A stretch of 64,000 bases of DNA, taken from the NCBI GenBank assembly GCA_030682255.1, contig JAUXOK010000026.1, positions 96,567 through 160,566 on the forward strand, given 5' to 3'. Numbering within the stretch: position 1 is the stretch's first letter; each line of letters opens with the position of its first letter. The notes under the pieces are model-generated. The model did no database searches. It had not been told where the DNA came from and was given only the letters and a program-made list of their open reading frames with translations. A program made the position numbers and the translations under genes. Positions 12,529 to 47,800 of this stretch are shown here, in pieces. Source of the DNA: Bacteroidota bacterium. Its GTDB lineage: Bacteria; Bacteroidota; Bacteroidia; NS11-12g; UBA955.

Positions 12529-13530
12529 TCAATTAAACTTTTTACTTTTCAATACTTTGCCATTTTTATCTTTAATCAACCAAACACCAATTGGTTCACA
12601 ATAGATAGAATTACCACATGTAAAATGAATCACATCATTTTCATTGCTTGAGTGTTTATGAACTATTGGTTTAAAACAAGCAATCATGACATCTTGGGTT
12701 TGAGGATTGTAATAATTCCATGTATCTTTTGCTAAATAATTGTTATACTCAATTAGCCTTAATAAACTCCCAAAATCGAAACTATCTTTTTGTAAATTAA
12801 TTTCAATAAAAGTCTTTATGAAATAAGGACTAATAAAAGTCTTTAAAAAGTCAAATTCCATTCGACTTGAAAAGCCTTCAATAATCAAAAGGCCAGAACT
12901 ATCAAAAGTTTTTAATCGAAAGGTGCTATCATTAATTTTTTGACAAGTAAATTCAATTGATGGTATTTTTGTTTGATAATATTTCGTGTAAGAATAATAA
13001 CTGCTTTCAAAATAGCCTTTTTTCTCCGACAACAAAAAAGTATCACTATTGACTATTTGATACAATAAAACATTGTTGTTTTTATTAAGTCTCTCAAAAT
13101 TTTCAGATGTTACTGGAATTATTTCAAATTGACTGTTTTGATTTTTAACTTTTAAGACAAAGTCATTTTGATCATTTAATGTTGTAAATCTCATAGGTTC
13201 GGCATAGCGATATTCCCCTAATATTTCATACTTTATACTATCTATTAACAGTTCGGAATATCCATTGGTTCTGGCTAAAACTGAAGTAAATTTTTTCGTT
13301 CTACTTCCCAAAATTTTTTGGGCTAAAATATCCTTTATTTGAGAGTCTTTAACTACCGTTCGGGCATCGTCTATCTTGGCAAGCCAATTGGATGCAAATG
13401 TTGCATCTAGGGTACTATCGTAGGCGGTAAAAGCAGCCAATTCGTCAACAAAAATTGCGTGAAGGGTGTCGGATGTTTCGCACATATAGTCATCGCTGCT
13501 ATTATATGCTCTGATAATTTCTTTTGCCAT
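12529..13530 (-). CDS. hypothetical protein (333 aa, no recognisable domain, no signal peptide)
   Basis: Long clean ORF with an ATG start; the 21-bp repeat array lies upstream of it. Confidence 0.55.
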   Translation of the reverse strand: MAKEIIRAYNSSDDYMCETSDTLHAIFVDELAAFTAYDSTLDATFASNWLAKIDDARTVVKDSQIKDILAQKILGSRTKKFTSVLARTNGYSELLIDSIKYEILGEYRYAEPMRFTTLNDQNDFVLKVKNQNSQFEIIPVTSENFERLNKNNNVLLYQIVNSDTFLLSEKKGYFESSYYSYTKYYQTKIPSIEFTCQKINDSTFRLKTFDSSGLLIIEGFSSRMEFDFLKTFISPYFIKTFIEINLQKDSFDFGSLLRLIEYNNYLAKDTWNYYNPQTQDVMIACFKPIVHKHSSNENDVIHFTCGNSIYCEPIGVWLIKDKNGKVLKSKKFN

Positions 13531-13755
13531 AGTGATTAATATTTAATATGTTTTAATTAATACTATTGACGAGGCAACAATAAAAATATTGTGTTAGATG
13601 TAAAAAAAATTAAAATACATCTACAAACAACTGATTATCAATTAAATATTTTTTACAAGTAATAAATAGGAATTTATTGATTTCTAAAAATAGCGTTGTT
13701 ATAACTTAAAAACACTTAGTTGAACAACAAAATTGTCTAGTTGTAAATAAAAACT

Positions 13756-13944
13756 GTTTAGTTGATGTCCGTCACCGTTTTGTTAATGAACATCAACGTT
13801 TAGTTGATACCCATCACCATTTAGTTAATGCTCATCACCGTTTAGTTGATGCTCATCACCGTTTAGTTGATGCTCATCACTGTTTAGTTGATACTCATCA
13901 CCATTTAGTTGATACCCGTCACCGTTTAGTTGATGCTCGTCACC
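13756..13944. repeat. tandem array, 9 copies of a 21-bp unit GTTTAGTTGATGCTCATCACC, each containing the inverted repeat GTTGATG-N2-CATCAC(C)
   Basis: Units in exact 21-bp phase from 13756 to 13944, with point variants such as GATACCCATCACC and GATGTCCGTCACC. Sits in the 686-bp interval between two minus-strand genes, about 225 bp upstream of the start of the 12529..13530 gene. Confidence 0.85.
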
Positions 13945-14164
13945 AATTTTAAAGATTAACTAAATCCTTTGCTAGCCTTGCTAAATAAGGAATTACATCA
14001 ACTAAGTGATATTAAAAACCAACTATCTCTTAGATGGTTTTAAAACAACATTATAAATCCCTTAAAGATTGAAGATAAGATTTAAGAAATTAAAAAAATT
14101 ACCTGTATTATGATTGATAATTTTAAATAATGGTTGATTGAAAAAGAAAATTCAAAGACTGAAA

Positions 14165-14201
14165 CAAAAAATGCAAGTAAAGGTGTTTACTTGCTTTTTT
14201 A
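14165..14201 (-). terminator. rho-independent (bidirectional) terminator after the 843-aa T9SS cargo gene
   Basis: aaaaaaatGCAAGTAAAggtgtTTTACTTGCtttttt; A-run and T-run on either side. Confidence 0.65.
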
Positions 14202-14216
14202 GGAAATCAAGAGGAA

Positions 14217-16748
14217 TTATCTTAAAAGACTTATTGTGCCATTTTTAAAGTGTTTTTTTTCTTGTAAATCAACAATTGTTAATGAATACATATATACGCC
14301 CTCTTGACAAATTTGATTTTTAAAATTGCCATCCCAAAAAGGTTGTACATTGGTTATTTCAAAAATAAGTTCACCCCAACGATTGAATATTGACATTTTA
14401 ATGGACTTAGCATTACTGATAGTAGGCTGAAATACATCATTTATTCCATCATTATTAGGGCTAAATGAGTTAGGAATATACTCTACCAATTTTAAACAAG
14501 GAGTAAATTCTATTGTATCTGAATTAAAGCAATTATTTTTTTGGATTCTAACAAAATAAACACCAGGTTCAGTCACAATTATGCTGTTTTGGGTACTTCC
14601 ATTACTCCATAAATAACTTTGTGCGAACGGTGCTCTAAGCATTTGATGATTACAAAGAAAAGTATCTTTACCTATAAATATGTCAGGCTTTGGTAATTTA
14701 TTTACACTTATTGTGTCTGAGTTATAACAAAATGGATATTGAGCTTTAACCCAATAAGAACCTTTTGAATAAACATTGGTTATGGCGCCTGTATCATCAT
14801 TACTCCAAAGGTAATGTATTCCAGTAATTGGAGTTATTTTAAGTTGCACTTTATCACAAATAGTGGTATCGGGTATAATTTCAATTTTTGGAGGGGGTAT
14901 TTGATTTAGATTAATTGTATCTGATGCTTCACAATGGTTGCTTCCAGTTACCTTTACATGATACAATCCTTCTTTATCTACCATAATTGAATAGGTAGAT
15001 TCTTCTGTATTCCATTTGTAATTTTTAAACCCGATTCCAGCATCTAGTTTTTTAGTAAAAGCATTGCAGAACGTTTCGTCATCTCCAATAAACACATTTG
15101 GCACATTACCTAAACTTATTTTTATGGTGTCTGCCAAGTTGCAAAATTTGTGTTTATAGGTTAGAATATACTCACCCGGAATATCTGTATATAGCTGCTG
15201 TGTGGTATCAATTGTGTTCCAATAAAATTGAATATTTAAATTGTTGTTTTGGTCTTTAATTAAAACTTTAGTATTAGGGCATATTATTGTATCATTGCCT
15301 AAATTTGGCTTTTGTTTACTAACAATATTAATTGATGAATAAATAATTGTGTCTTTGCCATCTGGCAATGAAACAATGGCTGAAACATTAAATATACGAT
15401 AATAGGCATACAGATGTTTTACATATGGTTCAGTTGTTTGCTTGGTGTTTCCATCTCCAAAATGCCAGACTATTTTTGTAACATCTGTGTTTACAATCTT
15501 AATTAATGCAGAATCCGACAAACAAGTGGTATCAGTTACTATTTTAATGGGATAATAAATTTGAGATTGTACACAATTGGGCAAACCAACTTTTGTTTTT
15601 GTTGAATTAGTGTATGTTTTTAATGCTCTATATTCAAAATCTGTTTTTAAACCATTGCTATCAGGATTATTTATAACGCTCAAAGCTGAGTCAACAAAAC
15701 CCATTGTTGCGTATATTTTTCTATTAGGTGCCAATTGTAAACTATAAAATTGATTATAATTATTAGAATTAATTTTCAAACGGATTTTATTAACATCAAT
15801 GTTATTTTTTATTGAATCTATGGGTATTTGATAAATGCCTTTATCTGAATTTAAGTCACATGTAAAATATAAAAATTTTTCATTTGGAGAAAATTCACAA
15901 CCATAAGCAAATTCTCTTGATTTAAGACCAAGAACAATTCTTCTATAATTGCTAAACGTACCATTGGAATGGTTAAAATCTAAAAAATGTATATAACTAT
16001 AGTCAGTGTCATTCTCATGAGATCTATATTCTGTAAATGCCAAATATTTGCCATTAGATGAAAATTTCATTTGCCCAATTCCATAACTAACATGACGACC
16101 CCAATCTGTGCCATCACCATATCCAATTTTATTAGTATTCATTTTATGAATAATTGGACTAGAGATACCATTTTCTGTAAGCTTATATAAATAAATAGAA
16201 TCAGAAAAATATTTTATGGAGGCAATCCAAACATCTTGTCCATTTTGGTGATTAACAGCTGTTAGTTTTTCACTAGAGTTTTTAAAAAGAAATGTGTTCT
16301 TTTCTATTACTTTTCCTAGTCCACTGTTTAAGTTTATATCAACGATGGAATAAAATACACCATTATTTGAAATTAAAGGATTAAGATTTACATGATCTGA
16401 AGTAAATAAGTAATAAAGATTAGAGTTTCCAGGTTGTTTTACAATCAATGCAGATTGCGTACTTGATACTCCTCCTAATAATCCAAAACCATTTTCCAAC
16501 GTATCGTGATTTTTATTCCAAATAGTAATACCGTCTGTATAAAACAATAAATTTCCATTATTATCTGAAATTGATGAACTACCTTCAAAAGCGTTCATTT
16601 TTGATTTATTATGAATAGTGTCAGATAAATGATTGAAATCTATAGAAGCATTCTGACCAAAACACCAATTGTTATAATATTTTTGAGTATAAATATTATT
16701 TGCAAATATTAATAAGAACAAAGACAATATAATGTATTTTGTTTTCAT
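14217..16748 (-). CDS. large secreted protein with a T9SS type-B sorting domain (gliding motility-associated C-terminal domain, CHU_C)
   Basis: Signal peptide MKTKYIILSLFLLIFANNIYTQ; C-terminus YIPNSFSPNNDGINDVFQP...WDGNFKNQ...GVYMYSL matches the type-B CTD. Confidence 0.7.
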   Translation of the reverse strand: MKTKYIILSLFLLIFANNIYTQKYYNNWCFGQNASIDFNHLSDTIHNKSKMNAFEGSSSISDNNGNLLFYTDGITIWNKNHDTLENGFGLLGGVSSTQSALIVKQPGNSNLYYLFTSDHVNLNPLISNNGVFYSIVDINLNSGLGKVIEKNTFLFKNSSEKLTAVNHQNGQDVWIASIKYFSDSIYLYKLTENGISSPIIHKMNTNKIGYGDGTDWGRHVSYGIGQMKFSSNGKYLAFTEYRSHENDTDYSYIHFLDFNHSNGTFSNYRRIVLGLKSREFAYGCEFSPNEKFLYFTCDLNSDKGIYQIPIDSIKNNIDVNKIRLKINSNNYNQFYSLQLAPNRKIYATMGFVDSALSVINNPDSNGLKTDFEYRALKTYTNSTKTKVGLPNCVQSQIYYPIKIVTDTTCLSDSALIKIVNTDVTKIVWHFGDGNTKQTTEPYVKHLYAYYRIFNVSAIVSLPDGKDTIIYSSINIVSKQKPNLGNDTIICPNTKVLIKDQNNNLNIQFYWNTIDTTQQLYTDIPGEYILTYKHKFCNLADTIKISLGNVPNVFIGDDETFCNAFTKKLDAGIGFKNYKWNTEESTYSIMVDKEGLYHVKVTGSNHCEASDTINLNQIPPPKIEIIPDTTICDKVQLKITPITGIHYLWSNDDTGAITNVYSKGSYWVKAQYPFCYNSDTISVNKLPKPDIFIGKDTFLCNHQMLRAPFAQSYLWSNGSTQNSIIVTEPGVYFVRIQKNNCFNSDTIEFTPCLKLVEYIPNSFSPNNDGINDVFQPTISNAKSIKMSIFNRWGELIFEITNVQPFWDGNFKNQICQEGVYMYSLTIVDLQEKKHFKNGTISLLR

Positions 16749-16824
16749 TTATATGCAAAAGTAATAATTAATTACAAATTAAAAAAATATTGAACTAATT
16801 ATTACTTTTGATTTTTGGGGACAA

Positions 16825-17463
16825 TTATGGGATACAATAAAATTCAAATCGTGCTGTATTTGTACTAGTAACTATTACTTCTATTCTAACACCATTAGTA
16901 CAGCCAGAACAAAAATTTTGTGGTGGATACATCAAATATGTTGAATTACCGTTATTCACCATTGTTTGAAAATCACCCCATGGAAAAAATTCTGGTGTAG
17001 ATGAAGTAAGAATAAAGATTCTATTTGGGCATTCACAATTTGGGTTATCTGGACATTTTGCACATGGTCCATACATTTTACAATTATTATTTGGATTAAT
17101 TGTAGGATTCCCCGGAGTACAACAAGGCAAATTACCTGGTGTACCACAAGTAAGAGGATCATTTGAACAACAACAAGGTGGATTAGTTCCAACTCCACAT
17201 CCAGGTCCACTAGAACAATTTTGAGGTGTACACCCACCACCAGCAAAAATCTTCTTAGCTGGAATTATGTAAGAGCATCCACTATAGCCCCAAAAAAAAT
17301 CCAAATCACAAGGTATATTATTGACTACTTCAATTTCCATACAATTTGGGTCACATGGCGGATCAGGAGGAGTTGTACAAGGTGTCATTTGTGCATTAAT
17401 TTTCAATACTATTAACATTAAAAATGTTAAAGTTAAAACTGGTTTTAGAATTACTTTTTTCAT
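16825..17463 (-). CDS. cysteine/proline/asparagine-rich secreted protein (212 aa, about 36 Cys), unknown function
   Basis: Signal peptide MKKVILKPVLTLTFLMLIVLKINAQ, then dense CxxC/CC/CCC patterns (PPCDPNC, CCCSNDPLTCGTPGNLPCCTPGNP, CAKCPDNPNCECPN). No T9SS CTD. Confidence 0.55.
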   Translation of the reverse strand: MKKVILKPVLTLTFLMLIVLKINAQMTPCTTPPDPPCDPNCMEIEVVNNIPCDLDFFWGYSGCSYIIPAKKIFAGGGCTPQNCSSGPGCGVGTNPPCCCSNDPLTCGTPGNLPCCTPGNPTINPNNNCKMYGPCAKCPDNPNCECPNRIFILTSSTPEFFPWGDFQTMVNNGNSTYLMYPPQNFCSGCTNGVRIEVIVTSTNTARFEFYCIP

Positions 17464-17585
17464 ATTTTTTAAATAATTATTAAATGTTATACAAACATCT
17501 AATCGATTTATTTAGTTTACAAACACAATAAATAGTTTTGAATATTTAAATTATAGCTCAAATTAATTAAATTATACTTTTTATA

Positions 17586-17903
17586 TTATAAATTTAATTT
17601 TTTCAACAATTGCACCATCTCAATCATTAGTTTTGGAGCATTAAGAGAGCAAAAATTTATTGTATTACATTGTGTGCAATTATTTAAAACTTGTTTCCAT
17701 TCAAATGTCAATAAATAATAAGGTGTAACACCTAATTCTTTAGAAATATCATATAAACAACTTAAAGATATATCAATTTCTCCTTTTTCTATCTTCTGAA
17801 GCCAATTTTGACTCTTACCTAGCTTATTAGCTAATCCGTCTTGAGAAAAACCTTTAATGGTTCTTAAAATTCTTACATTTTCTCCTAGTTTAGTATTTAT
17901 CAT
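17586..17903 (-). CDS. XRE-family helix-turn-helix transcriptional regulator
   Basis: 105 aa; HTH region VRILRTIKGFSQDGLANKLGKSQNWLQKIEKGEIDISLSCLYDISKELGV. Lies directly upstream of, and co-oriented with, the Cys-rich protein gene. Confidence 0.6.
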   Translation of the reverse strand: MINTKLGENVRILRTIKGFSQDGLANKLGKSQNWLQKIEKGEIDISLSCLYDISKELGVTPYYLLTFEWKQVLNNCTQCNTINFCSLNAPKLMIEMVQLLKKLNL

Positions 17904-17944: not shown

Positions 17945-17978
17945 CAAAAAACAAGTAAATTCCTTTACTTGTTTTTAA
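17945..17978 (-). terminator. rho-independent (bidirectional) terminator downstream of sdhB
   Basis: aaaaaACAAGTAAAttcctTTTACTTGTttttt. Confidence 0.65.
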
Positions 17979-18035: not shown

Positions 18036-18782
18036 CTATTCGCTTACCAAACTCGCAGACAGATATTCTCTGTTTAATCTAGCAATATTGCTTAAGCTGA
18101 TTTCTTTAGGACACTCTGCACTGCAAGCACCTGTATTGGTACATGCGCCAAAACCTTCTGCATCCATTTGATTCACCATGGCAATGGCACGTTTTTTAGC
18201 TTCTGGTTGCCCTTGTGGCAATAATGATAACTGTGATACTTTAGCTGACACAAACAACATGGCACTGGCGTTTTTACAAGCTGCTACACAGGCACCACAA
18301 CCAATACAAGCTGCACTCATAAAGGCTTCGTCTGCGATGTCTTTACCAATTGGCAAAGCATTCGCATCTTGGGCATTACCAGTATTCACACTCACAAATC
18401 CACCCGCTGACATAATTCTATCAAAAGAACTTCTATCAACTGATAAATCTTTCAAAACAGGAAATGCGGCTGCTCTCCATGGTTCTACAACAATGATATC
18501 GCCATCTTTAAAAGAACGCATGTGCAATTGGCAAGTGGTTACTGCATCTTTTGGTCCATGTGGTCGCCCATTGATGTACATACTGCACATACCACAAATG
18601 CCTTCACGACAGTCGTGGTCGAAAACAACAGGTTCTTTACCTTCGTTGATCAATTGCTCATTCAACACATCAAACATTTCTAAGAATGACATGTCTTCAG
18701 ACACATGGTCTAATTTGTAGGTCTCAAACTGACCTTTACTTTTTGTATTTTTTTGTCTCCAAACTTTTAATGTTATTTTCAT
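18036..18782 (-). CDS. sdhB: succinate dehydrogenase / fumarate reductase iron-sulfur subunit
   Basis: 2Fe-2S and 4Fe-4S cysteine clusters ([11 protein letters not shown]; [11 protein letters not shown]; [12 protein letters not shown]). Confidence 0.95.
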
Positions 18783-19362: not shown

Positions 19363-21369
19363 CTACTTATAGCTTCTCGCTGCAATTTTAATATTCTCGT
19401 ATTTTAATTCTTCTTTGTGTAATTGCCATTGGGCATCTTGTGTCATTTCCCAAGCGGATACAAAACTAAAGTTCTCATCGTCTCTGAGGGCTTCGCCTTC
19501 TTCTGTTTGGTATTCTTCTCTGAAGTGGCCACCACAACTTTCATTTCTTTCTAAAGCATCTTTACACATCAATTCACCTAGTTCAAGGAAATCGGCCACT
19601 CTGCCAGCTTTCTCTAATTCATTGTTAAATTCATTAACTTCACCAGGCACACGAACGTTGGTCCAAAATTCGTTTCTCAATGCTTGAATTTCTGCAATGG
19701 CTTTTTTCAAACCAGCTTCGTTTCTTGCCATGCCACATTCATCCCACATGATTTTGCCCAATATTTTATGAAAATAATCTACAGATTTTGTGCCTTTGAT
19801 ATTAATTAATTTGTTCAATCTATCTGAAACTTCTTTTTCTGCTTGCACAAACGCTTCATGGTCGGTAGGAATCGCTTTGGTACGAATATCAGTGCTTAAG
19901 TATGCACCAATGGTGTAAGGAATCACAAAATAGCCATCCGCCAAACCTTGCATTAAGGCAGATGCACCCAATCTGTTGGCACCGTGGTCGCTGAAATTAG
20001 CTTCACCCAAGGCGTACAATCCTGGCACAGTGGTCATTAAGTTGTAATCTACCCATAAACCACCCATGGTGTAATGCACCGCAGGATATATTTGCATTGG
20101 TTCATTGTAAGGATTTACACCTGTAATTTGCTCGTACATATCAAACAAGTTGCCATATTTTTCTTTCACCACCGCTTTTCCAAGTTTGGTTAAAGTAGCT
20201 TTATCAGGATTGACAAGGTTTTGTTTAGTTGCTTCAATTTTTCCATATCTTTCGATAGCGGCAGCATAATCTAAATAGACGGCTTGACCAGTTTTATTTA
20301 CACCATAACCAGCATCACATCTTTCTTTAGCAGCTCTACTTGCTACGTCACGAGGCACTAAGTTTCCGAATGCAGGGTATCTTCTTTCTAAATAATAATC
20401 TCTGTTTTCTTCAGCAATATCGTTAGGTTTAAGTTTTCCTTCTCTAACAGCTTTTGCATCTTCAGCATTTTTAGGCACCCATATTCTGCCGTCATTTCTT
20501 AGAGACTCAGACATCAAAGTTAATTTTGATTGGTGGTCGCCAGAAACAGGAATACAAGTTGGGTGAATTTGTGTATAACAAGGATTACCAAAGAACGCCC
20601 CTTTTTTATGAGCTTTCCAAGCAGCTGTTACATTACTTCCCATGGCATTGGTTGACAAGAAAAACACGTTTCCATATCCTCCTGTGCATAATAAAACAGC
20701 ATGACCAAAATGTCTTTCTAATTCTCCTGTGATTAAATTACGGGCAATGATTCCTCTTGCTTTGCCATCAATGGTAACAACATCCATCATTTCATGACGG
20801 GCATATAAAGTTACATTTCCCATACCAACTTGTCTTTGTAAGGCACTGTATGCACCCAACAACAATTGTTGACCAGTTTGACCTGCTGCATAAAAAGTAC
20901 GTTGAACTTGAGTACCACCGAACGAACGGTTACTCAACAACCCACCGTATTCTCTTGCAAACGGAACCCCTTGAGCCACACATTGGTCGATAATACTAGA
21001 ACTAACTTCCGCCAAACGGTGAACATTGCCTTCTCTTGCTCTATAATCACCACCTTTGATAGTATCATAAAACAAACGGTAAGTGCTATCGCCATCGTTT
21101 TGATAATTTTTTGCAGCATTGATACCACCTTGAGCAGCAATTGAGTGCGCTCTTCTAGGAGAATCTTGAAAGCAAAAGGCTTTCACTTTATATCCCATTT
21201 CGGCCAAAGAAGCAGCCGCAGAAGCACCAGCCAAGCCAGTTCCAACTACGATAATTTCTAAACTTCTTTTATTAGCAGGGTTAACGAGAGGAACAGAAGA
21301 TTTGTATTTGGTCCATTTTTGATCTATTGGACCTTCAGGAATTTTTGAATCTAATTTATTTATTGACAT
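19363..21369 (-). CDS. sdhA: succinate dehydrogenase / fumarate reductase flavoprotein subunit
   Basis: FAD-binding [10 protein letters not shown] motif at the N-terminus; 668 aa, the long Bacteroidetes/frdA-like form. Confidence 0.95.
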
Positions 21370-27983: not shown

Positions 27984-30900
27984 ATGAAAATAATTCTACT
28001 ATATAGCACTTTAATTATTTGTTTGTTTACAAATGCACAAAGCACTCATGTGAATGGCCCTATTGGAAGTGGAGAATTCGGAAGATCCATTACAATTTTA
28101 AGCAACGGTAATTACGTTGTTACTGATCCACTTTTTGACGATGGAACTAAAGCTGATGTAGGAGCTGCTTATCTATATAATGGGTCAACACATGCGTTGA
28201 TAAGTACACTAAAAGGTAGCACAGCAAATGATCAAGTTGGTAGTCATGGTATAATTGTCCTTTCAAATGGCAATTATTTGATTCATAGTTTCAATTGGAA
28301 CAATGGGACTGCATTTTATGCAGGTGCCGTCACTTGGGGCAGTGCAACCACGGGCGTGAGCGGTGTGGTTGGCCCTAGCAACTCTTTGGTGGGTAGCAAG
28401 GCTAATGACAGAATTGGGAATAGCGGCATTTTAGTTCTCTCTAATGGCAATTATTTGGTTTTAAGTACTGTTTGGGATAATGGGGCTGCTATAGATGCAG
28501 GAGCTGTTACTTGGGGCAGTGATGTTTTGGGCGTAACCGGAGTAGTTAGTGAGAGTAATTCCTTGGTGGGTAGCACGTCAAGTGATCAAGTGGGAAGTGG
28601 AGGAGCAACTTTACTATCCAATGGCAATTATATAGTGAATAGTCCAACTTGGGACAATGGTTCTATATCGAATGCTGGTGCCGTTACGTGGGGAAGTGGT
28701 AACTCAGGCATCAGTGGCGCAGTTAGTGCTAGCAATTCTTTGGTGGGCAGCACAGCAGATAACATTGTTGGAAACGGTGGAATAACGATCCTTACTAACA
28801 GTAATTATGTAGTTCGCAGCTCAAGATGGGATAATGGAACTGCAAATGACGTAGGAGCCGTCACTTGGGGCAACGGCACTTCAGGTATCATCGGTGCGGT
28901 TAGTGCAAGTAATTCTCTGGTTGGTAGTACCGTTAATGACCAAGTGGGAAGTGGTTTTATAATCGCTCTTTCCAACGGCAATTATGTAGTAAATAGCCCC
29001 TTTTGGGACAATGGGGCAATAAGCAATGTCGGAGCCGTCACTTGGGGCAATGGAACTACCGGCATTAGTGGTTTAGTTAGTGCTAGCAACTCTCTAGTGG
29101 GAAGTTTGGCAAATGATCAAGTTGGAATTGTGATTTCAACGGCACTCTCCAATGGTAATTATGTGGTTCGCAGCTACAACTGGGATAATGGGGCCGCAAG
29201 CAATGCAGGAGCAGTTACATGGGGCAATGGCACTTCGGGTATTACAGGTGCTGTTAGTGCAAGTAATTCATTAGTGGGAAGCACGGCTAACGATCAAGTG
29301 GGCATAAATGGTATAACTGCCCTTTCAAATGGCAATTATGTAGTTATTAGCCGACAATGGGACAACGGTGCTGCAACAGACGCAGGCGCTGTCACATGGG
29401 GCAATGGCACTTCAGGCATAAGCGGTGTAATTAGCTCAAGCAATTCTTTGGTGGGTAGCTCGGCTAGTGACCAAGTTGGCATTAATGGTGTAGCGGTTCT
29501 CTCCAATAGTAATTATGTAGTTATCAGCCCCAATTGGAACAATGGAGCTGCAACGAACGCAGGTGCCGTCACGTGGGGCAATGGCACTTCAGGTATCAGC
29601 GGTGTGGTTAGTACTAGCAATTCACTAGTAGGTAGCACAACAAATAACCTAGTTGGCAGTAATGGGATAACCGCTCTATCTAATGGCAATTATTTAGTTA
29701 TGAGCCCTTCTTGGGACTATGGAACTTCAACTGACTTAGGAGCTGTTACATGGAGTAATGGCACCACGGGTATCAGCGGTGTAGTTAGTGCCAGCAATTC
29801 TTTGGTGGGTAGCTCTGCTCTTGATCAAGTGGGTGTTAATGGTATTTCATTGCTTTCCAATGGCAATTATGTGGTTCGCAGTAACAATTGGGACAATGGG
29901 GCTGTAACAAATGCAGGAGCCGTCACTTGGGGTAATAGCAATTCGGGAATTAGCGGTGCTGTTAGCGCTAGCAATTCTTTGGTGGGCAGTAAGGTTGGTG
30001 ACCAAGTTGGCAGTTCAGGTATAACAGTCCTCTCCAATGGCAACTATGTGGTAAATAGCTCAAATTGGGACAATGGGACCGCAATTCAGGCAGGAGCTGT
30101 GACATGGGGAAATGGCAACACAGGCATCAGCGGTGTGGTTAGTGTCAGCAACTCATTGGTAGGGGGAACCGCTAATAACTTCGTAGGAAATGGCAGTGTA
30201 ATTGCCCTTGCAAATGGCAATTACGTAGTTCGAAGTTTCAATTGGGACAATGGGGCTGTATCAGACGTAGGTGCTATCACTTGGGGCAGTGGTACTAAGG
30301 GTATTAGTGGGGTAGTTAGTGAGAGCAATTCTCTTATTGGAAGCACCGCTAACAATTTAGTGGGAAGCGCTAGCTTTAACATCTTCCCTAATGGTTATTT
30401 TGTGGTTCGCAATCCCAACTGGGACAATGGTACTGCAACGGACGCAGGAGCATTCAGTTTGGGCAATGAAAGCAAAGCATTGACAGGAGTCGTAAATTCC
30501 TGCAACAGTGTATTAGGAAATGCAGCTAATGGCGGCAGCAAAATGATTTCTGCTTTCAATACTGTTCATTCTTATCTTTTGGTAGGCAGACCTGGCGATA
30601 ATATCTTAACCATTTTCAATCCTATTGGTCAGCCTCTTGCTGTGCATTTGGATAGCACTTCAGCAAATATTGAAGGAAACACTGCTGTGCCCCTAGTAAA
30701 CAATGCTTGTCGTATTATTGCTTCCATACAAGCCAATGGGGTCAATCCTGTAATGGATTTGGTGCCGGCAAAAGTTTGGATAGAAACTAATCAAACAGAT
30801 AGTTTTGTTAAACGTCATTTTGAAATCACGCCTATAGTAAACAATAATAATGCAACAGCAAAAGTGATCTTATATTTCACCCAATCAGAATTTGATGATT

Positions 30901-31406
30901 TTAATGCTGTAAACACTAAAAAACTTCCTACTTCAGGCTCTGATGCTCAAGGAAAATCTAATTTGCGTATTATCAAAAGAGCGGGCAATAGCATTAATAA
31001 CACTGGTTTGCCAGGCTCTTATATTGGAGCTGTGAGCACCATCGATCCTCCTGATAGCAACATAGTTTTTAATTCGCAACTAAGCCGTTGGGAAGTGAGT
31101 TTTGACGTATTAGGATTTAGTGGCTTTTTTGTTAATACAGGAAACAAAGTTACTTCTTTAACAGAGCTCCCCAAAAATTTAAACAATGTAGAACTATTTC
31201 CTAATCCTACCAATGGAATCCTAAATATACTTAGCCATTATAACCAAGATTTTAAACTCAAATTAATGGATATTTCAGGCAAACTTTTAATTGAAAAAAC
31301 CTTTCAAGGAAATGGAACTCATCTATTAGATTTAAGTAATTTTTTGCCAGGCATCTACTTAGTTAAACTAAGTACCGGTGAAACCTTTAAGGTGATTAAA
31401 CAGTAA
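27984..31406 (+). CDS. 1140-aa repetitive cell-surface protein with a T9SS type-A sorting domain (Por_Secre_tail)
   Basis: Signal peptide MKIILLYSTLIICLFTNAQS; about 18-20 tandem copies of a roughly 61-aa unit (SNSLVGS.anDQVGsgGItaLSNGNYVV.Sp.WDNGaa.naGAVTWGNGTSGISGvVSa); C-terminus LFPNPTNGILNI...GIYLVKLSTGETFKVIKQ. Confidence 0.7.
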   Translation: MKIILLYSTLIICLFTNAQSTHVNGPIGSGEFGRSITILSNGNYVVTDPLFDDGTKADVGAAYLYNGSTHALISTLKGSTANDQVGSHGIIVLSNGNYLIHSFNWNNGTAFYAGAVTWGSATTGVSGVVGPSNSLVGSKANDRIGNSGILVLSNGNYLVLSTVWDNGAAIDAGAVTWGSDVLGVTGVVSESNSLVGSTSSDQVGSGGATLLSNGNYIVNSPTWDNGSISNAGAVTWGSGNSGISGAVSASNSLVGSTADNIVGNGGITILTNSNYVVRSSRWDNGTANDVGAVTWGNGTSGIIGAVSASNSLVGSTVNDQVGSGFIIALSNGNYVVNSPFWDNGAISNVGAVTWGNGTTGISGLVSASNSLVGSLANDQVGIVISTALSNGNYVVRSYNWDNGAASNAGAVTWGNGTSGITGAVSASNSLVGSTANDQVGINGITALSNGNYVVISRQWDNGAATDAGAVTWGNGTSGISGVISSSNSLVGSSASDQVGINGVAVLSNSNYVVISPNWNNGAATNAGAVTWGNGTSGISGVVSTSNSLVGSTTNNLVGSNGITALSNGNYLVMSPSWDYGTSTDLGAVTWSNGTTGISGVVSASNSLVGSSALDQVGVNGISLLSNGNYVVRSNNWDNGAVTNAGAVTWGNSNSGISGAVSASNSLVGSKVGDQVGSSGITVLSNGNYVVNSSNWDNGTAIQAGAVTWGNGNTGISGVVSVSNSLVGGTANNFVGNGSVIALANGNYVVRSFNWDNGAVSDVGAITWGSGTKGISGVVSESNSLIGSTANNLVGSASFNIFPNGYFVVRNPNWDNGTATDAGAFSLGNESKALTGVVNSCNSVLGNAANGGSKMISAFNTVHSYLLVGRPGDNILTIFNPIGQPLAVHLDSTSANIEGNTAVPLVNNACRIIASIQANGVNPVMDLVPAKVWIETNQTDSFVKRHFEITPIVNNNNATAKVILYFTQSEFDDFNAVNTKKLPTSGSDAQGKSNLRIIKRAGNSINNTGLPGSYIGAVSTIDPPDSNIVFNSQLSRWEVSFDVLGFSGFFVNTGNKVTSLTELPKNLNNVELFPNPTNGILNILSHYNQDFKLKLMDISGKLLIEKTFQGNGTHLLDLSNFLPGIYLVKLSTGETFKVIKQ
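28230..30480. repeat. intragenic tandem DNA repeat, period about 183 bp (encodes the roughly 61-aa protein repeats)
   Basis: Recurring tcttt(g)gtgggtagcac...ggcaattatgt...tgggacaatgg...gccgtcacttggggcaatggcacttcaggtatcagcggtg blocks across this interval. Confidence 0.7.
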
Positions 31407-38434: not shown

Positions 38435-40501
38435 ATGAGACTATACCTTTTATTAATAATTCTTATATCTTCATTTGCTGAAAATACAATTGCTCAAAAA
38501 TTTGAATGGGCGAAGCAACAAGGAGGTCAAAGATATGATAGGGGCCATTCTGTAGCAATAGACAACTATGGAAATGTTTACACAACAGGTGTTTTTTCTT
38601 TTTATGCTGATTTTAATCCTGGAAAAGATACAAACTACCTCTTTTCAAATGGGGAGGCAGATATATTTATCTCTAAGTTAGATGCCATGGGCAATTTTGT
38701 TTGGGTTAAGCAAATAGGAGGAACAGGGTGGGAAGAAGGCAATTCAATTGTAGTAGATATCTTGGGCAGTGTTTATATTACTGGTAGTTTTTCAGGAACC
38801 GTTGATTTTGATCCAAGTGAAGATACTACTTTTCTAACATCACATGGAATGACCGATATTTTTGTATTAAAATTAGATGCATCTGGCAATTATCTTTGGG
38901 CAAAAAGGTTTGGTGGTTTAGAAAATGACATTGGTACTTCTATTACTTTAGATGCCACTGGAAATATTTATACTACTGGAATATTTAGAGGGTCTGTAGA
39001 CTTTGACCCTGGATTAAGTGTTGTCGAATATAATTCAATAGGCGATTATGATATTTTCATATCAAAATTAGATTCCAAAGGCAATTTCATTTGGGCTAAA
39101 CAATTAGGTGGATTAAATGGAGATGCAAGTTATTCTATAGCTATTGATGCACAAGGATATGTTTATACTACTGGGAGTTTTAAAGGAACAGTTGACTTTG
39201 ATCTTGGAATAGACTCATCTTATTTAAGTTCAACAGGTCATAGAGGGGATATGTATATTTCTAAATTAGATTCTAATGGTAATTTTGTTTGGGCAAAACA
39301 AATTATGGGAACAGATTTGGTAATTGGTCGCTCAATCACTACTGATGATTCAGGGAATGTATACACCACTGGATACTTTGAAAGTAGAATAGACTTTGAT
39401 CTCGCAAATGGGAACATTAATTTCACTTCAGATGGATACTCTGATATTTTTATTTCTAAATTAGATTCTAACGGTATTTTTGTTTGGGCTAAACAAATTG
39501 GAGGAAGTGGTGTTGATGAATGTCATTCAATTGCAATTAACAAATCAGGAGATATTTATACTACAGGTAGTTTTTCCGAATCTGTTGATTTTGACCCCGG
39601 TTCAGATTCCTTCAATTTGAAAGCAAAATACGAGGATGTTTTTATTTCCAAATTAGACAATGCTGGTAATTTCATATGGGCAAAACAATTATTAGGTACA
39701 AATTTTGGCAATGGCACGTCTTTAGTTTTAGATGTATCAAACAATATTTATACAACTGGCTATTTTTTTGGCACTGTTGACTTTGACCCAGGTAAAGGCA
39801 CTACTAATTTTATTCAAGCTGTTCCAAATAGCTTCTCTGATATTTTTGTTCTTAAGCTATCATCATGTACTACTGCTGTAGTTACAGACACAAGAACCGC
39901 CTGCAACTCTTACACATGGATTGATGGAAAAATCTATACATCAAGCAACAACAATGCTCAATTTATAATTTCTGAAGGTGCTGCTAATGGTTGTGATAGC
40001 ATAGTAACACTTAATCTAACAATCAATAATATTTCTGATATTACAACATCTACTTCTGGTTCAAATATTACTGCAAACAATAATATAGCTACTTACCAAT
40101 GGCTAGATTGCAACAATAACTTTGCTAAAATTTCAGGCGCTTCCAATCAAATATTTTCACCAACTTTAAACGGAAGTTATGCAGTTGAACTTACTGAAAA
40201 TAGCTGTGTTGATACAAGTTCTTGTGTTGTTTTTTCAAATCTTAATATAGTTGAGAATGATTTAGGATTTGAGCTTGTATTTTATCCTAATCCAACGAAT
40301 GGAAAATTAATAATTGAATTAGGCAAAGAACTAAACAATGTGCAATTAACAGTTCGTAATTTGTTAGGTCAAGAAATTTATTATAAAAACTATGCTTCTG
40401 CAAATCAAATTGAATTGAATTTAGAAAGCCCTTCAGGCATTTACTTAATAGAAATACTTAGTAATGGGAAAAAAGCGGTTTTAAAAATTCTTAAAGAATA
40501 A
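38435..40501 (+). CDS. SBBP-repeat (beta-propeller) protein with a T9SS type-A sorting domain
   Basis: Repeated GN.YTTGxFxGTVDFDPG.... FISKLD..GNFVWAKQ units; C-terminus FYPNPTNGKLIIEL...GIYLIEILSNGKKAVLKILKE. Confidence 0.7.
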   Translation: MRLYLLLIILISSFAENTIAQKFEWAKQQGGQRYDRGHSVAIDNYGNVYTTGVFSFYADFNPGKDTNYLFSNGEADIFISKLDAMGNFVWVKQIGGTGWEEGNSIVVDILGSVYITGSFSGTVDFDPSEDTTFLTSHGMTDIFVLKLDASGNYLWAKRFGGLENDIGTSITLDATGNIYTTGIFRGSVDFDPGLSVVEYNSIGDYDIFISKLDSKGNFIWAKQLGGLNGDASYSIAIDAQGYVYTTGSFKGTVDFDLGIDSSYLSSTGHRGDMYISKLDSNGNFVWAKQIMGTDLVIGRSITTDDSGNVYTTGYFESRIDFDLANGNINFTSDGYSDIFISKLDSNGIFVWAKQIGGSGVDECHSIAINKSGDIYTTGSFSESVDFDPGSDSFNLKAKYEDVFISKLDNAGNFIWAKQLLGTNFGNGTSLVLDVSNNIYTTGYFFGTVDFDPGKGTTNFIQAVPNSFSDIFVLKLSSCTTAVVTDTRTACNSYTWIDGKIYTSSNNNAQFIISEGAANGCDSIVTLNLTINNISDITTSTSGSNITANNNIATYQWLDCNNNFAKISGASNQIFSPTLNGSYAVELTENSCVDTSSCVVFSNLNIVENDLGFELVFYPNPTNGKLIIELGKELNNVQLTVRNLLGQEIYYKNYASANQIELNLESPSGIYLIEILSNGKKAVLKILKE

Positions 40502-43347: not shown

Positions 43348-43896
43348 ATGGCTGATTTCAATATTGAAACTCTTAATGAACTACTAGTTCAATGTATTGA
43401 TAAACAACCTAAAGCGCAAAAAAAGTTATTTGACATATTATCTCCCAGAATGTTTGCAATCTGCCTTAGATATTCACAAAATGAAGACGAAGCAAAAGAT
43501 TTACTTCAAGAAGGTTTCATTAAAATATTCAACAACCTCGAACAATTCAGCAATAAAGGTTCGCTTGAAGGATGGATTAAACGTATTTTCATAAACACGT
43601 GTATCGAATTTCATCGAAAAAATCAAAAACATCGTTTTTTAGACAATATTGAAAATGTAACCGAAATTTCAATTGATAGTCAAACTCTATCGTTATTGAA
43701 AAAAGCCGATTTGATGAAACTTGTCCAAAAACTCCCCAAAGGCTATAGAACAGTTTTCAACTTATTTGTAGTTGACGGATATGGACACAGCGAAATTGCT
43801 GAAATGTTAAATGTTTCAGAAAACACAAGTAAAACACAACTATTTAGAGCAAGACAAATACTGCAAGAGATAATATTAAAACAAGATTTAAAGTGA
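43348..43896 (+). CDS. RNA polymerase ECF-type sigma-70 factor
   Basis: Region-2 motif ...EDEAKDLLQEGFIKIF...; region-4 HTH ...GYGHSEIAEMLNVSENTSKTQLFRARQIL. Confidence 0.9.
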   Translation: MADFNIETLNELLVQCIDKQPKAQKKLFDILSPRMFAICLRYSQNEDEAKDLLQEGFIKIFNNLEQFSNKGSLEGWIKRIFINTCIEFHRKNQKHRFLDNIENVTEISIDSQTLSLLKKADLMKLVQKLPKGYRTVFNLFVVDGYGHSEIAEMLNVSENTSKTQLFRARQILQEIILKQDLK

Positions 43897-44807
43897 TAGA
43901 AAAAAATATAAATAACGAATTTGACAGCCTTTTTAAAGAAGGACTAGAAAACAATGCTATAACACCACCAAACGGTGTTTGGGAAAATCTATCTTCTCAA
44001 ATGGGTAGTCAGGCTTCAAATGTAACTATTGCAAAAACTATCGCAACAAAAACAACTAGTCTTTGGATTAAAACAAGTTTATTTATTGCTGTAGCTTCCA
44101 TTTCAGGAGTTATTGCCTATCAAGCTTTCAACTCAAAAACCGAACAACAAACACTAAATTCTGAAATAGCAAACAACGCAAATACTACTAATAATTCTGG
44201 CCAAACAATTATTCAATCGGAAGAAATAGAATCAGAATTGAATGAAAGCGAAAAATCAGATAACAAAAATATAGGGGTCACACCACCTATTTTAAATGAA
44301 AAAAGCAAGAGCAAACCTCAAAATGCAACTCATAACACGAAAGAAACAATTGTAATAGAGAACAAAACTACAGCAAAAGAATCTAAAGATATTAGTGATA
44401 ATATTGATAACACTTCAAAAAACACAAATTCCAAGTTGCCAGAAACTCAACCGAATGAGACTATTCAAAATGATGAAATTTACAAGGATGAAAGTGAACC
44501 AATTACATTGAATCCGATCAAAAAAGATACTATTTTTATAATTATACCAAATGTTGTTACACCCAATAACGATGGCATCAATGATGTGTATCGCATAGAA
44601 ATGAAAGGTGAAATCAAATTTTACATGGCAATTTTTAATGATAAAATGGAACGCATTTTTGAGACAAGCAACAAAAACAATGCATGGGATTGCAAACTCT
44701 CAAATTTAGAGGATGCGCCAGCCGGAAATTACATTGTAATTGTAAAATATCAGTTGAAAAACTCTGATGAAAAAACCGAAACAACAAAGCTTAAATTAAT
44801 TCGATAA
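43893..44807 (+). CDS. putative anti-sigma factor (single-pass membrane protein) with a C-terminal T9SS type-B sorting domain
   Basis: GTG start overlapping the sigma gene stop codon (GTGA); one TM helix (TSLFIAVASISGVIAYQAF) after a roughly 55-aa N-terminal segment; S/N/T/E-rich linker; C-terminus IIPNVVTPNNDGINDVYRI...GNYIVIVKY. Confidence 0.55.
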   Translation: MIEKNINNEFDSLFKEGLENNAITPPNGVWENLSSQMGSQASNVTIAKTIATKTTSLWIKTSLFIAVASISGVIAYQAFNSKTEQQTLNSEIANNANTTNNSGQTIIQSEEIESELNESEKSDNKNIGVTPPILNEKSKSKPQNATHNTKETIVIENKTTAKESKDISDNIDNTSKNTNSKLPETQPNETIQNDEIYKDESEPITLNPIKKDTIFIIIPNVVTPNNDGINDVYRIEMKGEIKFYMAIFNDKMERIFETSNKNNAWDCKLSNLEDAPAGNYIVIVKYQLKNSDEKTETTKLKLIR

Positions 44808-44842: not shown

Positions 44843-47800
44843 ATGCAAACTCAAAAGAATATGAATAAAATAAATCAAATACTCAGATTTAGTAAGGCAG
44901 TTGGTCTCTTACTTTTCTTAGCTTTTACGAGCTCAGAATTAAGTGCACAGTGCAGTATTACAACGGGGGCATCACCATGTGTTGGCGAACCAGTACTATT
45001 TAATTGTAACGCAGTTGGTGCTACAAATTTCAATTGGAATTTCAATAGCGAAGGTTCAAATACCTCCGCATGTAATCCTACATTTGTATTTAACACACCT
45101 GGACTAAAAACAATTACATTGTCGTTAAGGCTTGCCAATGGCAATACTTGTAATGCAACAACAACTATTGATGTTAAACCAAAACCAATTGTTAGAATCA
45201 GTAGAATTGTTCAACAAACGCAGTGTTTTGCTGGCAATAGCTTTTGTTTCAGAGATAGTAGTATTTCAGGTGAAACAGGTGGAAATATTTGCAAAACTAC
45301 CATCGTATTTGATGATGGAGTGAGATATACTTTTACCGGCAATGGACCACGCACATTCTGTCATTCATTTGGCGACCCTGCGGGTGGAACATATGGTATG
45401 ACAGTTGAAATTGAAGATTGTAATGGCTGTTTAGTTAAAACAAGACTCGATGCCGTTGCTATTGTTCAGGCATCTTTGGGTTTATCATTTTCATCTCCAA
45501 GACCTCAACGTTGCGATAGTGTTCAATTATGTGTTACCAATAATTCAACTATTCCACTCAGCCAAGTTTCTTCATTTAGATGGAATTGGGGAAATGGCCA
45601 AGTAACCACTGGTAATTCAACAACACCACAATTTTGGGGAAATCCAGGACAAACGCCTAACAATCCTATTTGCCATTGGTTTAAAACTCAAGGACCAAAT
45701 AATGGTAGTTTTAACTCTAGATTAATTGTAACTTCAGTATTTGGTTGTACAGATTCATTTACATTCAACGCTTCTGCAACTAATTTAATTATCAAACCTG
45801 TTATTGTAGCCGACAGAGATTCTGTTTGTATAACTGATCCTCAAATTAACTTTAGATTAAAAAATGGACCTGTTCCATTAGCAGCCAATCCAGTTTGGAA
45901 CTTTGGTAATCCTCCTAGCGGACCACTAAATATCAGTAGACAGTGGACAGGCTCACACGCAGCATGGGGATTAGGACCATACAAAATAAACTTTTCATTC
46001 ACACACCAAATACCAGGATGTAGCAGAACAGTTTATGACACTATCTTAGTTATAGGGCCGCAATCTGTTATTGAAACGGGACCAAGCAATTGGTTAGTTG
46101 ACACTTTAAGATACCAATGTGTCATTAAAGACACCGTTAAATTTAAAAACTTTTCTCAATTTTATCACAATGATAAAAACATGATGGATGATGATTCTCT
46201 TATTATCATCATTAAAGATAGCATCATGGTGAACAAAAACACTGGGGTTATTGTAACAGGACAAACCTATAATCCTTCTATCCACGAATGGGTTTTTCCA
46301 GGATTTAATGCGCCTATGTCACACTCGTTCAACAAATTACCGCCTCCTGCACCTGTTCCTAGCAATGGACAAACATCGCTAGAGCACCATAATCAACAAA
46401 GAGGAAACTCTTGTACAATAAGATTGTGGGATTTTGATGATGACTATTGTGAAAAATGTACTACCGATACCAAAAACGGAGTCAACATAGGAAAAAACTG
46501 TAAATACAGTAAAGACTCATTACCACAGCACTGGTATACGCCATGGGATTCTTTATACATGACTAACTTTGGATTAAGATCAGAAAATGTATTTAGATAT
46601 GACCAAGATTCTGGGTTGTGTTACCAAAGAAGACTTTGGTCTAATGATTCTGTAGCAATTATCAGAGATACTTTCTTGTTTTATGGTGACAATCCTATTG
46701 GCAATTCAGCAAAAGATTCTGCCATTTTTGCAAATATTAAAAACAAAGTGATGGTTCCTTGGGGTGTTCAAGGAAAAGCAAAAATAGACATAACCATAGC
46801 AACAAGAGTTCGTGTTCCGGGTGGAGACACGTTATTTGTTGACCCTAATAATGGTCTTGCTCCTAACAGATGGATAGGACCTAGGTATGTCACCATTCAA
46901 CCAGGTAATTCATTGGTATTAAAATCTACTACAGATAGAGTGTTTTATCACTTTTGGTTACAATACATTGTTGATACCATTCCTTTACATTTAGTAGAAC
47001 CATGGCACAAAGTATTTACAAAAATACCAATGCCAAGTTTCCAAATAGGCGATAGTGTAAATGCGGATGCTCATCGTCAGAAATTTTATTCTGGAGATGT
47101 TGTTAGATGTTTCAATGTTAGACTTAAACACAAAGATACATGCCATGATTTAGAATGTGAAAATGAAGCTGTAGCATCATTAGCGCTGCAACCACCTAGT
47201 GCCAAAAAACTAAGAAAAGAAGGTGTATTATGTTTAGGCGGAGCCCAACAAACTTATGGTATCACATTTATTTTAGAAGATACTAAACCTAGTTGTTCTA
47301 GAACTTGGGCTGAAATCAATTATGATACTGCATTAAACAAAAATGGCTGGTTGAATTTAATAGGACCAAACTTAGGTGGCGGTGCTGTACCAACAGGAGC
47401 ACTTCCTCCAGTAAACCCTCCATATTTAGGCTATATTCCTGCAGGTCCTGCTCCTGGCAGATTCTCTAAACAATTTACGGTAGATGACATTAAAGATACT
47501 GTTACAGGCTATATCAATGTTGGACTAATTGTTGGAACAGGTATATGGACTAATTATCTTAACCAAGGAATCAGAACAAGTACATATGGCTATCCAATGG
47601 ATTGTCACGATACGGTTTATTATGAAAAATTTGCACGATTCCCTATTCTAGACAATCAATTCAGAATCATTAAACCAAAACAAGGTGATGCCTTTACTAA
47701 AATTTGCAGAAAAGATACCATCTGTTTAACTACTATGGCTTGGAACAGATCTTACATTCCAGATGTAGCAGAAACTCAATGGAGTTTAACCGGAGCTAAT

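Follow-up and report, generated by a model that had tools for sequence, protein, structure and literature searches.

The locus described here raises the question of which neighbour an exported protein with 22 cysteines works with, and in what capacity. It lies on the minus strand of a 64,000-nucleotide stretch of contig JAUXOK010000026.1 from a Bacteroidota bacterium, the whole of which is referred to as the window. In the direction of transcription, it comprises a gene for a small helix-turn-helix (HTH) regulator of the XRE family, the gene for a 212-residue cysteine-rich secreted protein (in the following the small gene and the small protein) and a gene for an 843-residue type IX secretion system (T9SS) cargo. 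A preliminary description of the locus had paired the small gene with the XRE gene and overlooked the cargo gene, which starts 76 nt downstream. Judged from gene order across related loci, this T9SS type B cargo gene, and not the XRE gene, is the conserved partner of the small gene.

The T9SS cargo gene as conserved partner

The cargo protein begins with a signal peptide, continues with a propeller-like region (residues ~22–400), a PKD domain (420–467) and about four cysteine-containing Ig-like repeats, and ends with a type B sorting domain (Table 1). It matched PF13585 (CHU_C) with 63.4 bits (cut-off 27) and TIGR04131 with 55.3 bits (cut-off 35), and the PKD match scored 28.2 bits. The N-terminal ~380 residues gave weak matches to propeller repeats (PQQ_2, PD40), and a profile search against the PDB aligned the end of the propeller-like region together with the PKD domain to the S-layer protein 1l0q, which combines a YVTN propeller with PKD (E = 2.4e-8).

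All four close loci contain an orthologous gene for a PKD and type B protein of ~845 residues, located 56–77 nt after the small gene. Across the wider set of loci (designated by L numbers), a cargo orthologue follows on the same strand at a distance of 29–98 nt in the window and in L001, L004, L007, L008, L011, L014, L025, L051, L088, L096, L100 and L101, and in L012 the called small and cargo genes overlap by 11 nt. Wherever sufficient downstream sequence was available, the locus contained the cargo gene. In distant pairs, the small proteins are 24–48% identical and the cargos, which are full-length orthologues, 23–56%. The outer neighbours vary, from the sdh operon in the window and L001 to a phosphoribosyltransferase gene in L004, an unknown gene in L007 and, elsewhere, genes for LptD or CTP_transf_1.

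As a rule, the gene of a type B substrate is followed directly by a porP/sprF-like shuttle gene, and substrates lacking such a gene are termed orphans (PMC12618676, PMC9143113). Since no PorP/SprF-like gene adjoins the cargo gene in any locus examined, the cargo can be classified as an orphan type B substrate. The open reading frames (ORFs) downstream of the cargo gene were considered as shuttles and rejected, as the 333-residue ORF in the window and the 345-residue ORF in L008 have no Pfam match and are unrelated to each other. The cargo belongs to a class of proteins that are predicted to be adhesins.

Export, composition and family of the small protein

The small protein is identical to the hypothetical protein Q8K70_08565 of a Bacteroidota metagenome-assembled genome (MAG). 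Both the small and the XRE ORF were found where the preliminary description had placed them, co-oriented on the minus strand and 122 nt apart, and the signal peptide that it had assigned to the small protein was recovered as well. The N-terminus, MKKVILKPVLTLTFLMLIVLKINA followed by Q, is a classical signal for Sec and signal peptidase I, with Gln at +1, and its removal leaves a mature protein of 188 residues. Glutamine directly after the cleavage site follows the Q-rule of Bacteroidetes (PMC5837995, PMC10653852), and an [AGS]-Q site occupies the corresponding position in every full-length member of the family. No lipobox ([LVI][ASTVI][GAS]C) was found at the end of the signal, and the first cysteine stands at +5 after a proline, which argues against a lipoprotein. 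As reported before, the small protein lacks a T9SS sorting domain: neither the type A models (TIGR04183, PF18962) nor the type B models (TIGR04131, PF13585) matched at E ≤ 1 in Pfam and NCBIfam.

Cysteine accounts for 22 of the 212 residues (10.4%; 11.7% of the mature chain) and not for the ~17% given originally; only the segment from residue 78 to 145 is much denser (20.6%). The content is nevertheless by far the highest among all ORFs of the window, for which the median is 1.3% and the second-highest value 4.4%, in the Fe-S protein SdhB. The cysteine clusters mentioned in the preliminary description could be located as CxxC at 134–137 and 185–188, CC at 114–115, CCC at 97–99 and CxC at 143–145, and its statement that the chain is rich in Pro (13.2%), Asn (10.4%) and Gly (8.0%) holds. 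The small protein contains 19 aromatic residues (11 Phe, 6 Tyr, 2 Trp) and no His, and His and Met are not enriched. All 22 cysteines are invariant in three homologues with 66–77% identity. The dN/dS ratio was 0.13–0.26 for the whole gene and 0.075–0.26 for a cysteine-rich insert described below. These data mark the ORF as a real gene that is subject to purifying selection, and selection on the 51 residues of the insert is at least as strong as on the core.

About 25 relatives were found among roughly 15 billion proteins, all of them stand-alone proteins of 119–217 residues and all from uncultured Bacteroidota. When 1.84 billion cluster representatives were searched exhaustively with a HMMER profile, just 14 proteins matched (119–213 residues, stand-alone). 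Their matches consist of two stretches, query residues ~1–88 and ~115–215, on either side of the insert, the close homologue P0004 being the exception. A word-indexed search contributed a few extra members, and a metagenome scan with the alignment of the close family found nothing. The 212-residue protein itself had no match in Pfam and NCBIfam at E ≤ 1, in PHROGs and PADLOC, or in a PDB sequence profile search at E ≤ 10, which agrees with the earlier remark that it does not resemble any familiar family. As far as these searches reach, the small family is previously undescribed, rare and Bacteroidotan, and is without a Pfam or NCBIfam entry. Descent of the small protein from a cargo domain or from the sorting domain by duplication and divergence was rejected, as hhalign aligned only the signal peptides of the two proteins.

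Fold and cysteine chemistry

In the family alignment, the small protein consists of a conserved core, interrupted by the insert at residues 78–128. The core has twelve cysteine positions, which are listed for its two halves in Table 1, and is marked by the motifs CMxIxVxN, CxLxFxWGY, GPCAKCP, CECP, PWGxF (PWGDF in the window protein) and NGNSTY. The full insert occurs only in the four closest members and is missing from 19 of the 25 aligned members, while P0005 and P0006 contain a short version that retains Cys 78 and Cys 128 as the only cysteines of the insert. The insert is probably a disulfide-knotted loop, and the family offers a clear example of a compact beta-sandwich that has gained a loop of 51 residues with 10 cysteines.

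With an alignment of 4 sequences, AlphaFold2 reached a predicted local distance difference test (pLDDT) score of 49.6 and the model was unusable, whereas 22 sequences raised the pLDDT to 76.3, with a predicted template modelling score (pTM) of 0.70. In the latter model, the core (residues 41–83 and 125–212) is all-beta with a pLDDT of 83–94, ~9 strands and one short helix, and residues 84–124 of the insert are not modelled. A core of ~130 residues is thus confidently predicted to be a beta-sandwich. Foldseek searches of the PDB and BFVD with this model yielded no significant match, so the nearest fold relatives of the beta-sandwich are uncertain. Structural comparison gave figures of 5.4 for Cry34Ab1, 5.2 for NttC, 5.1 each for RahU, FraC and bryoporin, 4.8 each for OlyA6, Nakanori and the SRL lectin, and about 4 for thaumatin-like proteins.

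Of 25 members, 23 have an even number of cysteines in the mature chain, with totals ranging from 10 to 22 across the family (nominal binomial p = 1e-5, ignoring phylogeny). Moreover, Cys 78 and Cys 128 co-occur in the family alignment, and Cys 188 and Cys 210 vanish together. Because the counts are even and cysteines are gained and lost in pairs, the pattern is that of an all-disulfide protein and not of thiolate metal sites. We infer that all cysteines are engaged in disulfides, about six in the core and five in the insert. The preliminary description had listed a disulfide-knotted protein among its options, and this part of it agrees with both the parity and the paired gain and loss.

Proposed function and alternatives

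The function of the small protein is derived from gene linkage alone: even between deeply diverged members and in unrelated genomic surroundings, its gene adjoins an orthologous cargo gene, which supports a partnership. Our preferred reading, which we hold tentatively and would rate slightly short of probable, is that the small protein serves as a periplasmic, cargo-specific accessory protein of an orphan type B T9SS adhesin. It would be exported by the Sec pathway and fold into a disulfide-stabilised beta-sandwich. As it has no sorting domain, it would then remain periplasmic or be located on the inner side of the outer membrane, where it may bind its cognate cargo, probably at the propeller region, and act as adaptor, chaperone or holding factor before the cargo leaves through the T9SS translocon. 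A hairpin that follows the small gene would probably raise the output of the small protein above that of the large one or divide the two genes into two transcription units. In lineages that lost the small gene, the accessory protein would be dispensable.

Several observations weigh against this proposal. The presumed physical contact between small protein and cargo is itself deduced from gene linkage. The gene-context survey, which was made through the cargo protein, found 156 relatives of the cargo among GTDB species representatives, where the cargo family is common in Bacteroidota, and ~74 of the 80 sampled loci of this wider family have no small partner. A small cysteine-rich gene lies upstream in only ~6 of the 80, namely in L025, L040, L051 and L088, where it was detected by the hidden Markov model (HMM) of the family, as a pseudogene in L016, and in L029, whose gene escapes the HMM and is possibly a distant analogue. 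In a rough neighbour-joining tree, the partner-bearing cargos belong mainly to two basal clades, and the cargos of L017, L018, L019 and L068, which have no partner, are nested within partner-bearing clades. In L016 (2659–2897), from a Bacteroidia MAG of Lake Mendota, the small gene has suffered an internal deletion of ~400 nt, a change of W162 to a stop codon and the substitution C188W, while the XRE gene and the cargo gene, whose product is 80% identical to that of the window, are intact. Given the partner-less cargos and this pseudogene, the small protein is not generally required for folding or secretion of the cargo. Finally, the small and cargo genes may be transcribed independently, because a terminator-like hairpin lies between them in 10 of 13 distinct loci. 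From this distribution, the small gene appears to have arisen once together with a cargo subfamily and to have been lost repeatedly thereafter.

Among known systems, the PorP/SprF shuttles (sprB-sprF, Fjoh_3952-Fjoh_3951; PMC12618676, PMC9143113) resemble the small protein in that an accessory gene adjoins a type B gene and that the pairs are cognate and co-evolve. They differ in being outer-membrane beta-barrels of ~300–350 residues that are encoded downstream of the cargo, whereas the small protein is predicted to be a soluble cysteine-rich beta-sandwich of ~130–190 residues and is encoded upstream. Apart from the adjacency, nothing assigns the 212-residue protein to this family, as it has no Pfam match and a soluble beta-sandwich is predicted. 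With the class I chaperones of type III secretion systems (T3SS) and the Eag/DUF1795 and DUF4123 adaptors of type VI secretion systems (T6SS), to which its function would be analogous, it shares its small size, the position directly upstream of the cognate substrate, the restriction to one substrate family and the occasional loss. These T3SS and T6SS helpers are cytoplasmic and have no signal peptide. The small protein, unlike them, is exported by Sec and rich in disulfides, as would befit a factor that assists a substrate on its passage through the periplasm. Thaumatin-like proteins, which are disulfide-rich beta-sandwiches with 16 cysteines, are also among the closest known systems.

The prevailing view is that a T9SS substrate requires no more than a C-terminal sorting domain and a shuttle, which is PorV for type A and a PorP/SprF-like protein for type B. 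To our knowledge, no comparable cargo-specific chaperone or adaptor has been described for the T9SS. The small protein could be the first such periplasmic factor, or a subunit without sorting domain that piggy-backs on the cargo, a reading that we consider rather unlikely. It would then recognise a single orphan type B adhesin by its passenger domain and control the hand-over of this adhesin to the translocon or its activity afterwards. Work on the handling of orphan type B substrates is at an early stage (PMC12618676), and an exported small protein that co-evolves with one type B cargo would, if the reading is true, represent a new class of substrate-specific accessory factor. The small protein and its cargo form a concrete pair that is open to testing.

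Two alternatives accept the gene order and explain it differently. The small protein might be an independent envelope or periplasmic protein whose gene stays next to the cargo gene through co-regulation or co-inheritance, without any physical partnership. Such independence would agree with the terminator-like hairpin in the intergenic region and with a box ahead of the cargo gene that could be a promoter of its own, as well as with the fact that the cargo stays intact after loss or pseudogenisation of the small gene. However, adjacency, strand and spacing are maintained in every informative locus down to 24–30% identity while the surroundings change, and wherever the downstream DNA suffices, the small family is never found alone or beside another type of gene, so that we regard independence as rather unlikely. 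Alternatively, the small protein could leave the cell, either carried piggy-back through the T9SS by the folded cargo or in vesicles, and serve as the target-binding subunit, for a lipid or glycan, of a two-component adhesin or cytolysin in the manner of aegerolysins. In aegerolysin systems, a ~14 kDa protein is encoded beside a larger partner. Actinoporin- and aegerolysin-like proteins such as those of the pairs Cry34Ab1/Cry35Ab1 and OlyA6/PlyB or RahU are likewise beta-sandwiches of ~14 kDa with an adjoining gene for a larger partner. The conserved aromatic motifs FxWGY and PWGDF and the heavy disulfide bonding, which suits extracellular life, are compatible with this role, and the hairpin after the small gene could yield an excess of the small subunit. 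But aegerolysins are not rich in cysteine and share no sequence similarity with the small protein, for which no aegerolysin or actinoporin profile matched in Pfam (E ≤ 1) or by sequence in the PDB (E ≤ 10). Their partners are MACPF or Toxin_10 pore-formers, whereas the partner here is a T9SS cargo that resembles an adhesin. The small protein also has no sorting domain of its own, and we know of no precedent for piggy-back export by the T9SS. Such an extracellular binary partner is therefore a doubtful candidate.

The two remaining alternatives were proposed in the preliminary description and have lost ground. A metallothionein-like, metal-binding function in the periplasm or outside the cell was suggested by the CxxC, CC, CCC and CxC motifs and by a local cysteine content of 20% in residues 78–145. 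However, cysteine makes up ~20–30% of the whole chain in metallothioneins, which have few or no aromatic residues, and the parity of their ligand cysteines is not constrained; the small protein contains 10.4% cysteine and 19 aromatic residues, no histidine and no enrichment of His or Met, and its cysteines occur in even numbers and come and go pairwise. In addition, its core is confidently predicted to be a beta-sandwich, it is exported into an oxidising compartment, and none of the neighbourhoods examined contains metal-handling genes, which makes metal binding very improbable. Even less credit can be given to a bacteriocin- or toxin-like product under control of the XRE regulator. The protein is small, secreted and cysteine-rich and its gene adjoins an XRE gene, regulators of this type often govern toxin or defence modules, and the XRE protein matches control proteins in PADLOC. 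Yet the XRE gene is missing beside distant members of the family, genes for immunity, ABC transporters or modification enzymes were found in none of ~14 neighbourhoods, and the small protein, which is without a match in PADLOC and PHROGs, carries a standard Sec signal in place of a bacteriocin leader and contains a folded domain of ~130 residues.

The XRE gene and its upstream regions

The identification of the upstream gene as an XRE regulator was confirmed by matches to HTH_19 (38.0 bits, gathering cut-off 30.2) and HTH_3 (35.9 bits, cut-off 23). Its pairing with the small gene, which had been taken as a defining trait, turned out to be limited to the close subclade, and even there the orientation flips: the XRE gene points the same way as the small gene in the window, L001 and L016 but is divergent from it in L004, L007 and L098. 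The sequences flanking the small gene in L008, L014, L025, L051, L088 and L100 contained no XRE gene, nor did the 159 nt upstream of it in L011, and a conserved XRE/small-gene pair does not extend over the whole family. From this distribution, the XRE gene probably regulates the module locally and only in this lineage. The cysteines at the C-terminus of its product (CTQCNTINFC), to which the preliminary description had drawn attention, are absent even from the closest homologue and are for this reason treated as incidental; a functional role of these cysteines was rejected on the same ground.

A conserved operator for the XRE protein could not be identified either, as the search yielded only AT-rich palindromes at chance level, none of which is common to the loci or to the three intergenic regions. 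In L001 (5796–5935) and L016 (5500–5712), the XRE promoter region recurs in slightly diverged form directly after the cargo gene, and in L016 the duplicated region leads into the beginning of another XRE gene (MTNTQIGENLRILR...). These duplications suggest that the modules were tandemly repeated in the L001/L016 lineage. A DDE_Tnp_1 transposase gene adjoins the divergent XRE gene of family member P0011 (L098:63–2153), which fits mobility of the module between genomic contexts.

Transcription units and further features of the window

Whether the small gene and the cargo gene are cotranscribed bears on their coupling. No GC-rich terminator was found between them in a scan of the window, and the intergenic hairpin is AT-rich (Table 1). 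A strong hairpin at the matching position is followed by a T-run, as in intrinsic terminators, in L004, L007, L008, L011, L014 and L101. A TAnnTTTG box occurs 7–11 nt ahead of the start codon of the cargo gene in several loci, a distance too short for a confident promoter call. A simple operon of small gene and cargo gene was considered; it is weakened by the intergenic hairpins and not established. The two genes may be transcribed separately or as a single unit in which the hairpin, by attenuation or stabilisation, would favour the small product; both arrangements would be compatible with functional coupling.

The trio of XRE, cysteine-rich and T9SS cargo genes is bracketed by the two copies of a palindrome, CAAGTAAA-N4-TTTACTTG, flanked by A- and T-runs, which occurs exactly twice in the 64 kb of the window (14174–14193 and 17952–17971; 0.07 copies expected). 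The copy after sdhB belongs to a hairpin that likewise follows sdhB in L001 and L016. The twin palindrome could be a duplicated terminator that marks the insertion of the three-gene module.

Table 1. Position of the features discussed in the text, in window coordinates
Feature	Position	Strand	Remarks
Gene for cysteine-rich secreted protein, 212 residues	16825–17463	minus	locus tag Q8K70_08565, Bacteroidota MAG
Signal peptide, residues 1–24	17392–17463	minus	cleavage between KINA and QMTPC, Gln at +1; read from sequence
N-terminal half of core, residues 25–77	17233–17391	minus	Cys 29, 37, 41, 52, 63; profile matches and alignments; pLDDT 85–92 at 41–80
Cys/Pro/Gly/Asn-rich insertion, residues 78–128	17080–17232	minus	10 Cys in 51 residues; pLDDT <50
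C-terminal half of core, residues 129–212	16828–17079	minus	Cys 134, 137, 143, 145, 185, 188, 210; pLDDT 83–94
AT-rich RNA hairpin of 21 bp between small and cargo genes	16756–16810	minus	minimum free energy –17.4 kcal/mol, z = –7.5
Partner cargo gene, 843 residues	14217–16748	minus	CHU_C, TIGR04131 and PKD matches; orthologues downstream of small genes
T9SS type B C-terminal sorting domain of cargo, residues 758–842	14223–14477	minus	
Terminator-like hairpin ending the module	14173–14194	minus	stem identical to hairpin at 17952–17971
AT-rich intergenic region upstream of cysteine-rich gene	17464–17585	minus	presumed own promoter; imperfect 21-nt inverted repeat at 17498–17541
Gene for XRE-family HTH regulator, 105 residues	17586–17903	minus	Pfam HTH_19 and HTH_3 above cut-off
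Hairpin and T-run upstream of XRE gene	17947–17976	minus	second terminator after sdhB; stem as at 14173–14194

Beyond the terminator of the cargo gene, the gap from 13531 to 14137 contains no ORF of at least 30 codons. Within this gap, between the terminator and the 333-residue ORF, lies a tandem array of nine copies of a 21-nt repeat (13756–13944; unit GTTTAGTTGATGCTCATCACC, TRF score 245, 83% matches). Each unit holds an imperfect palindrome (GGTGATGAGCATCAAC), and the array, which has no Rfam match, looks like an iteron or operator array. The 333-residue ORF (12529–13530, minus strand) encodes a protein without signal peptide and without a match in Pfam, PHROGs or PADLOC.

On the other side of the module, a gene for a four-helix-bundle protein of the '23S rRNA intervening-sequence protein' type (PF05635, TIGR02436; 18832–19269, minus strand) is located within the sdh operon, between sdhA (19363–21369) and sdhB (18036–18782), and L001 is arranged alike. 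Further T9SS-related loci of the window lie at 27984–31406, 38435–40501, 43893–44807 and 44843–50326. The other cargos encoded in the window are a type A protein of 1140 residues with 14 DUF5650 repeats, a type A protein with an SBBP beta-propeller and a PKD protein of 1827 residues with a type B CHU_C domain, and an ORF of 304 residues ends in a CHU_C-like segment.

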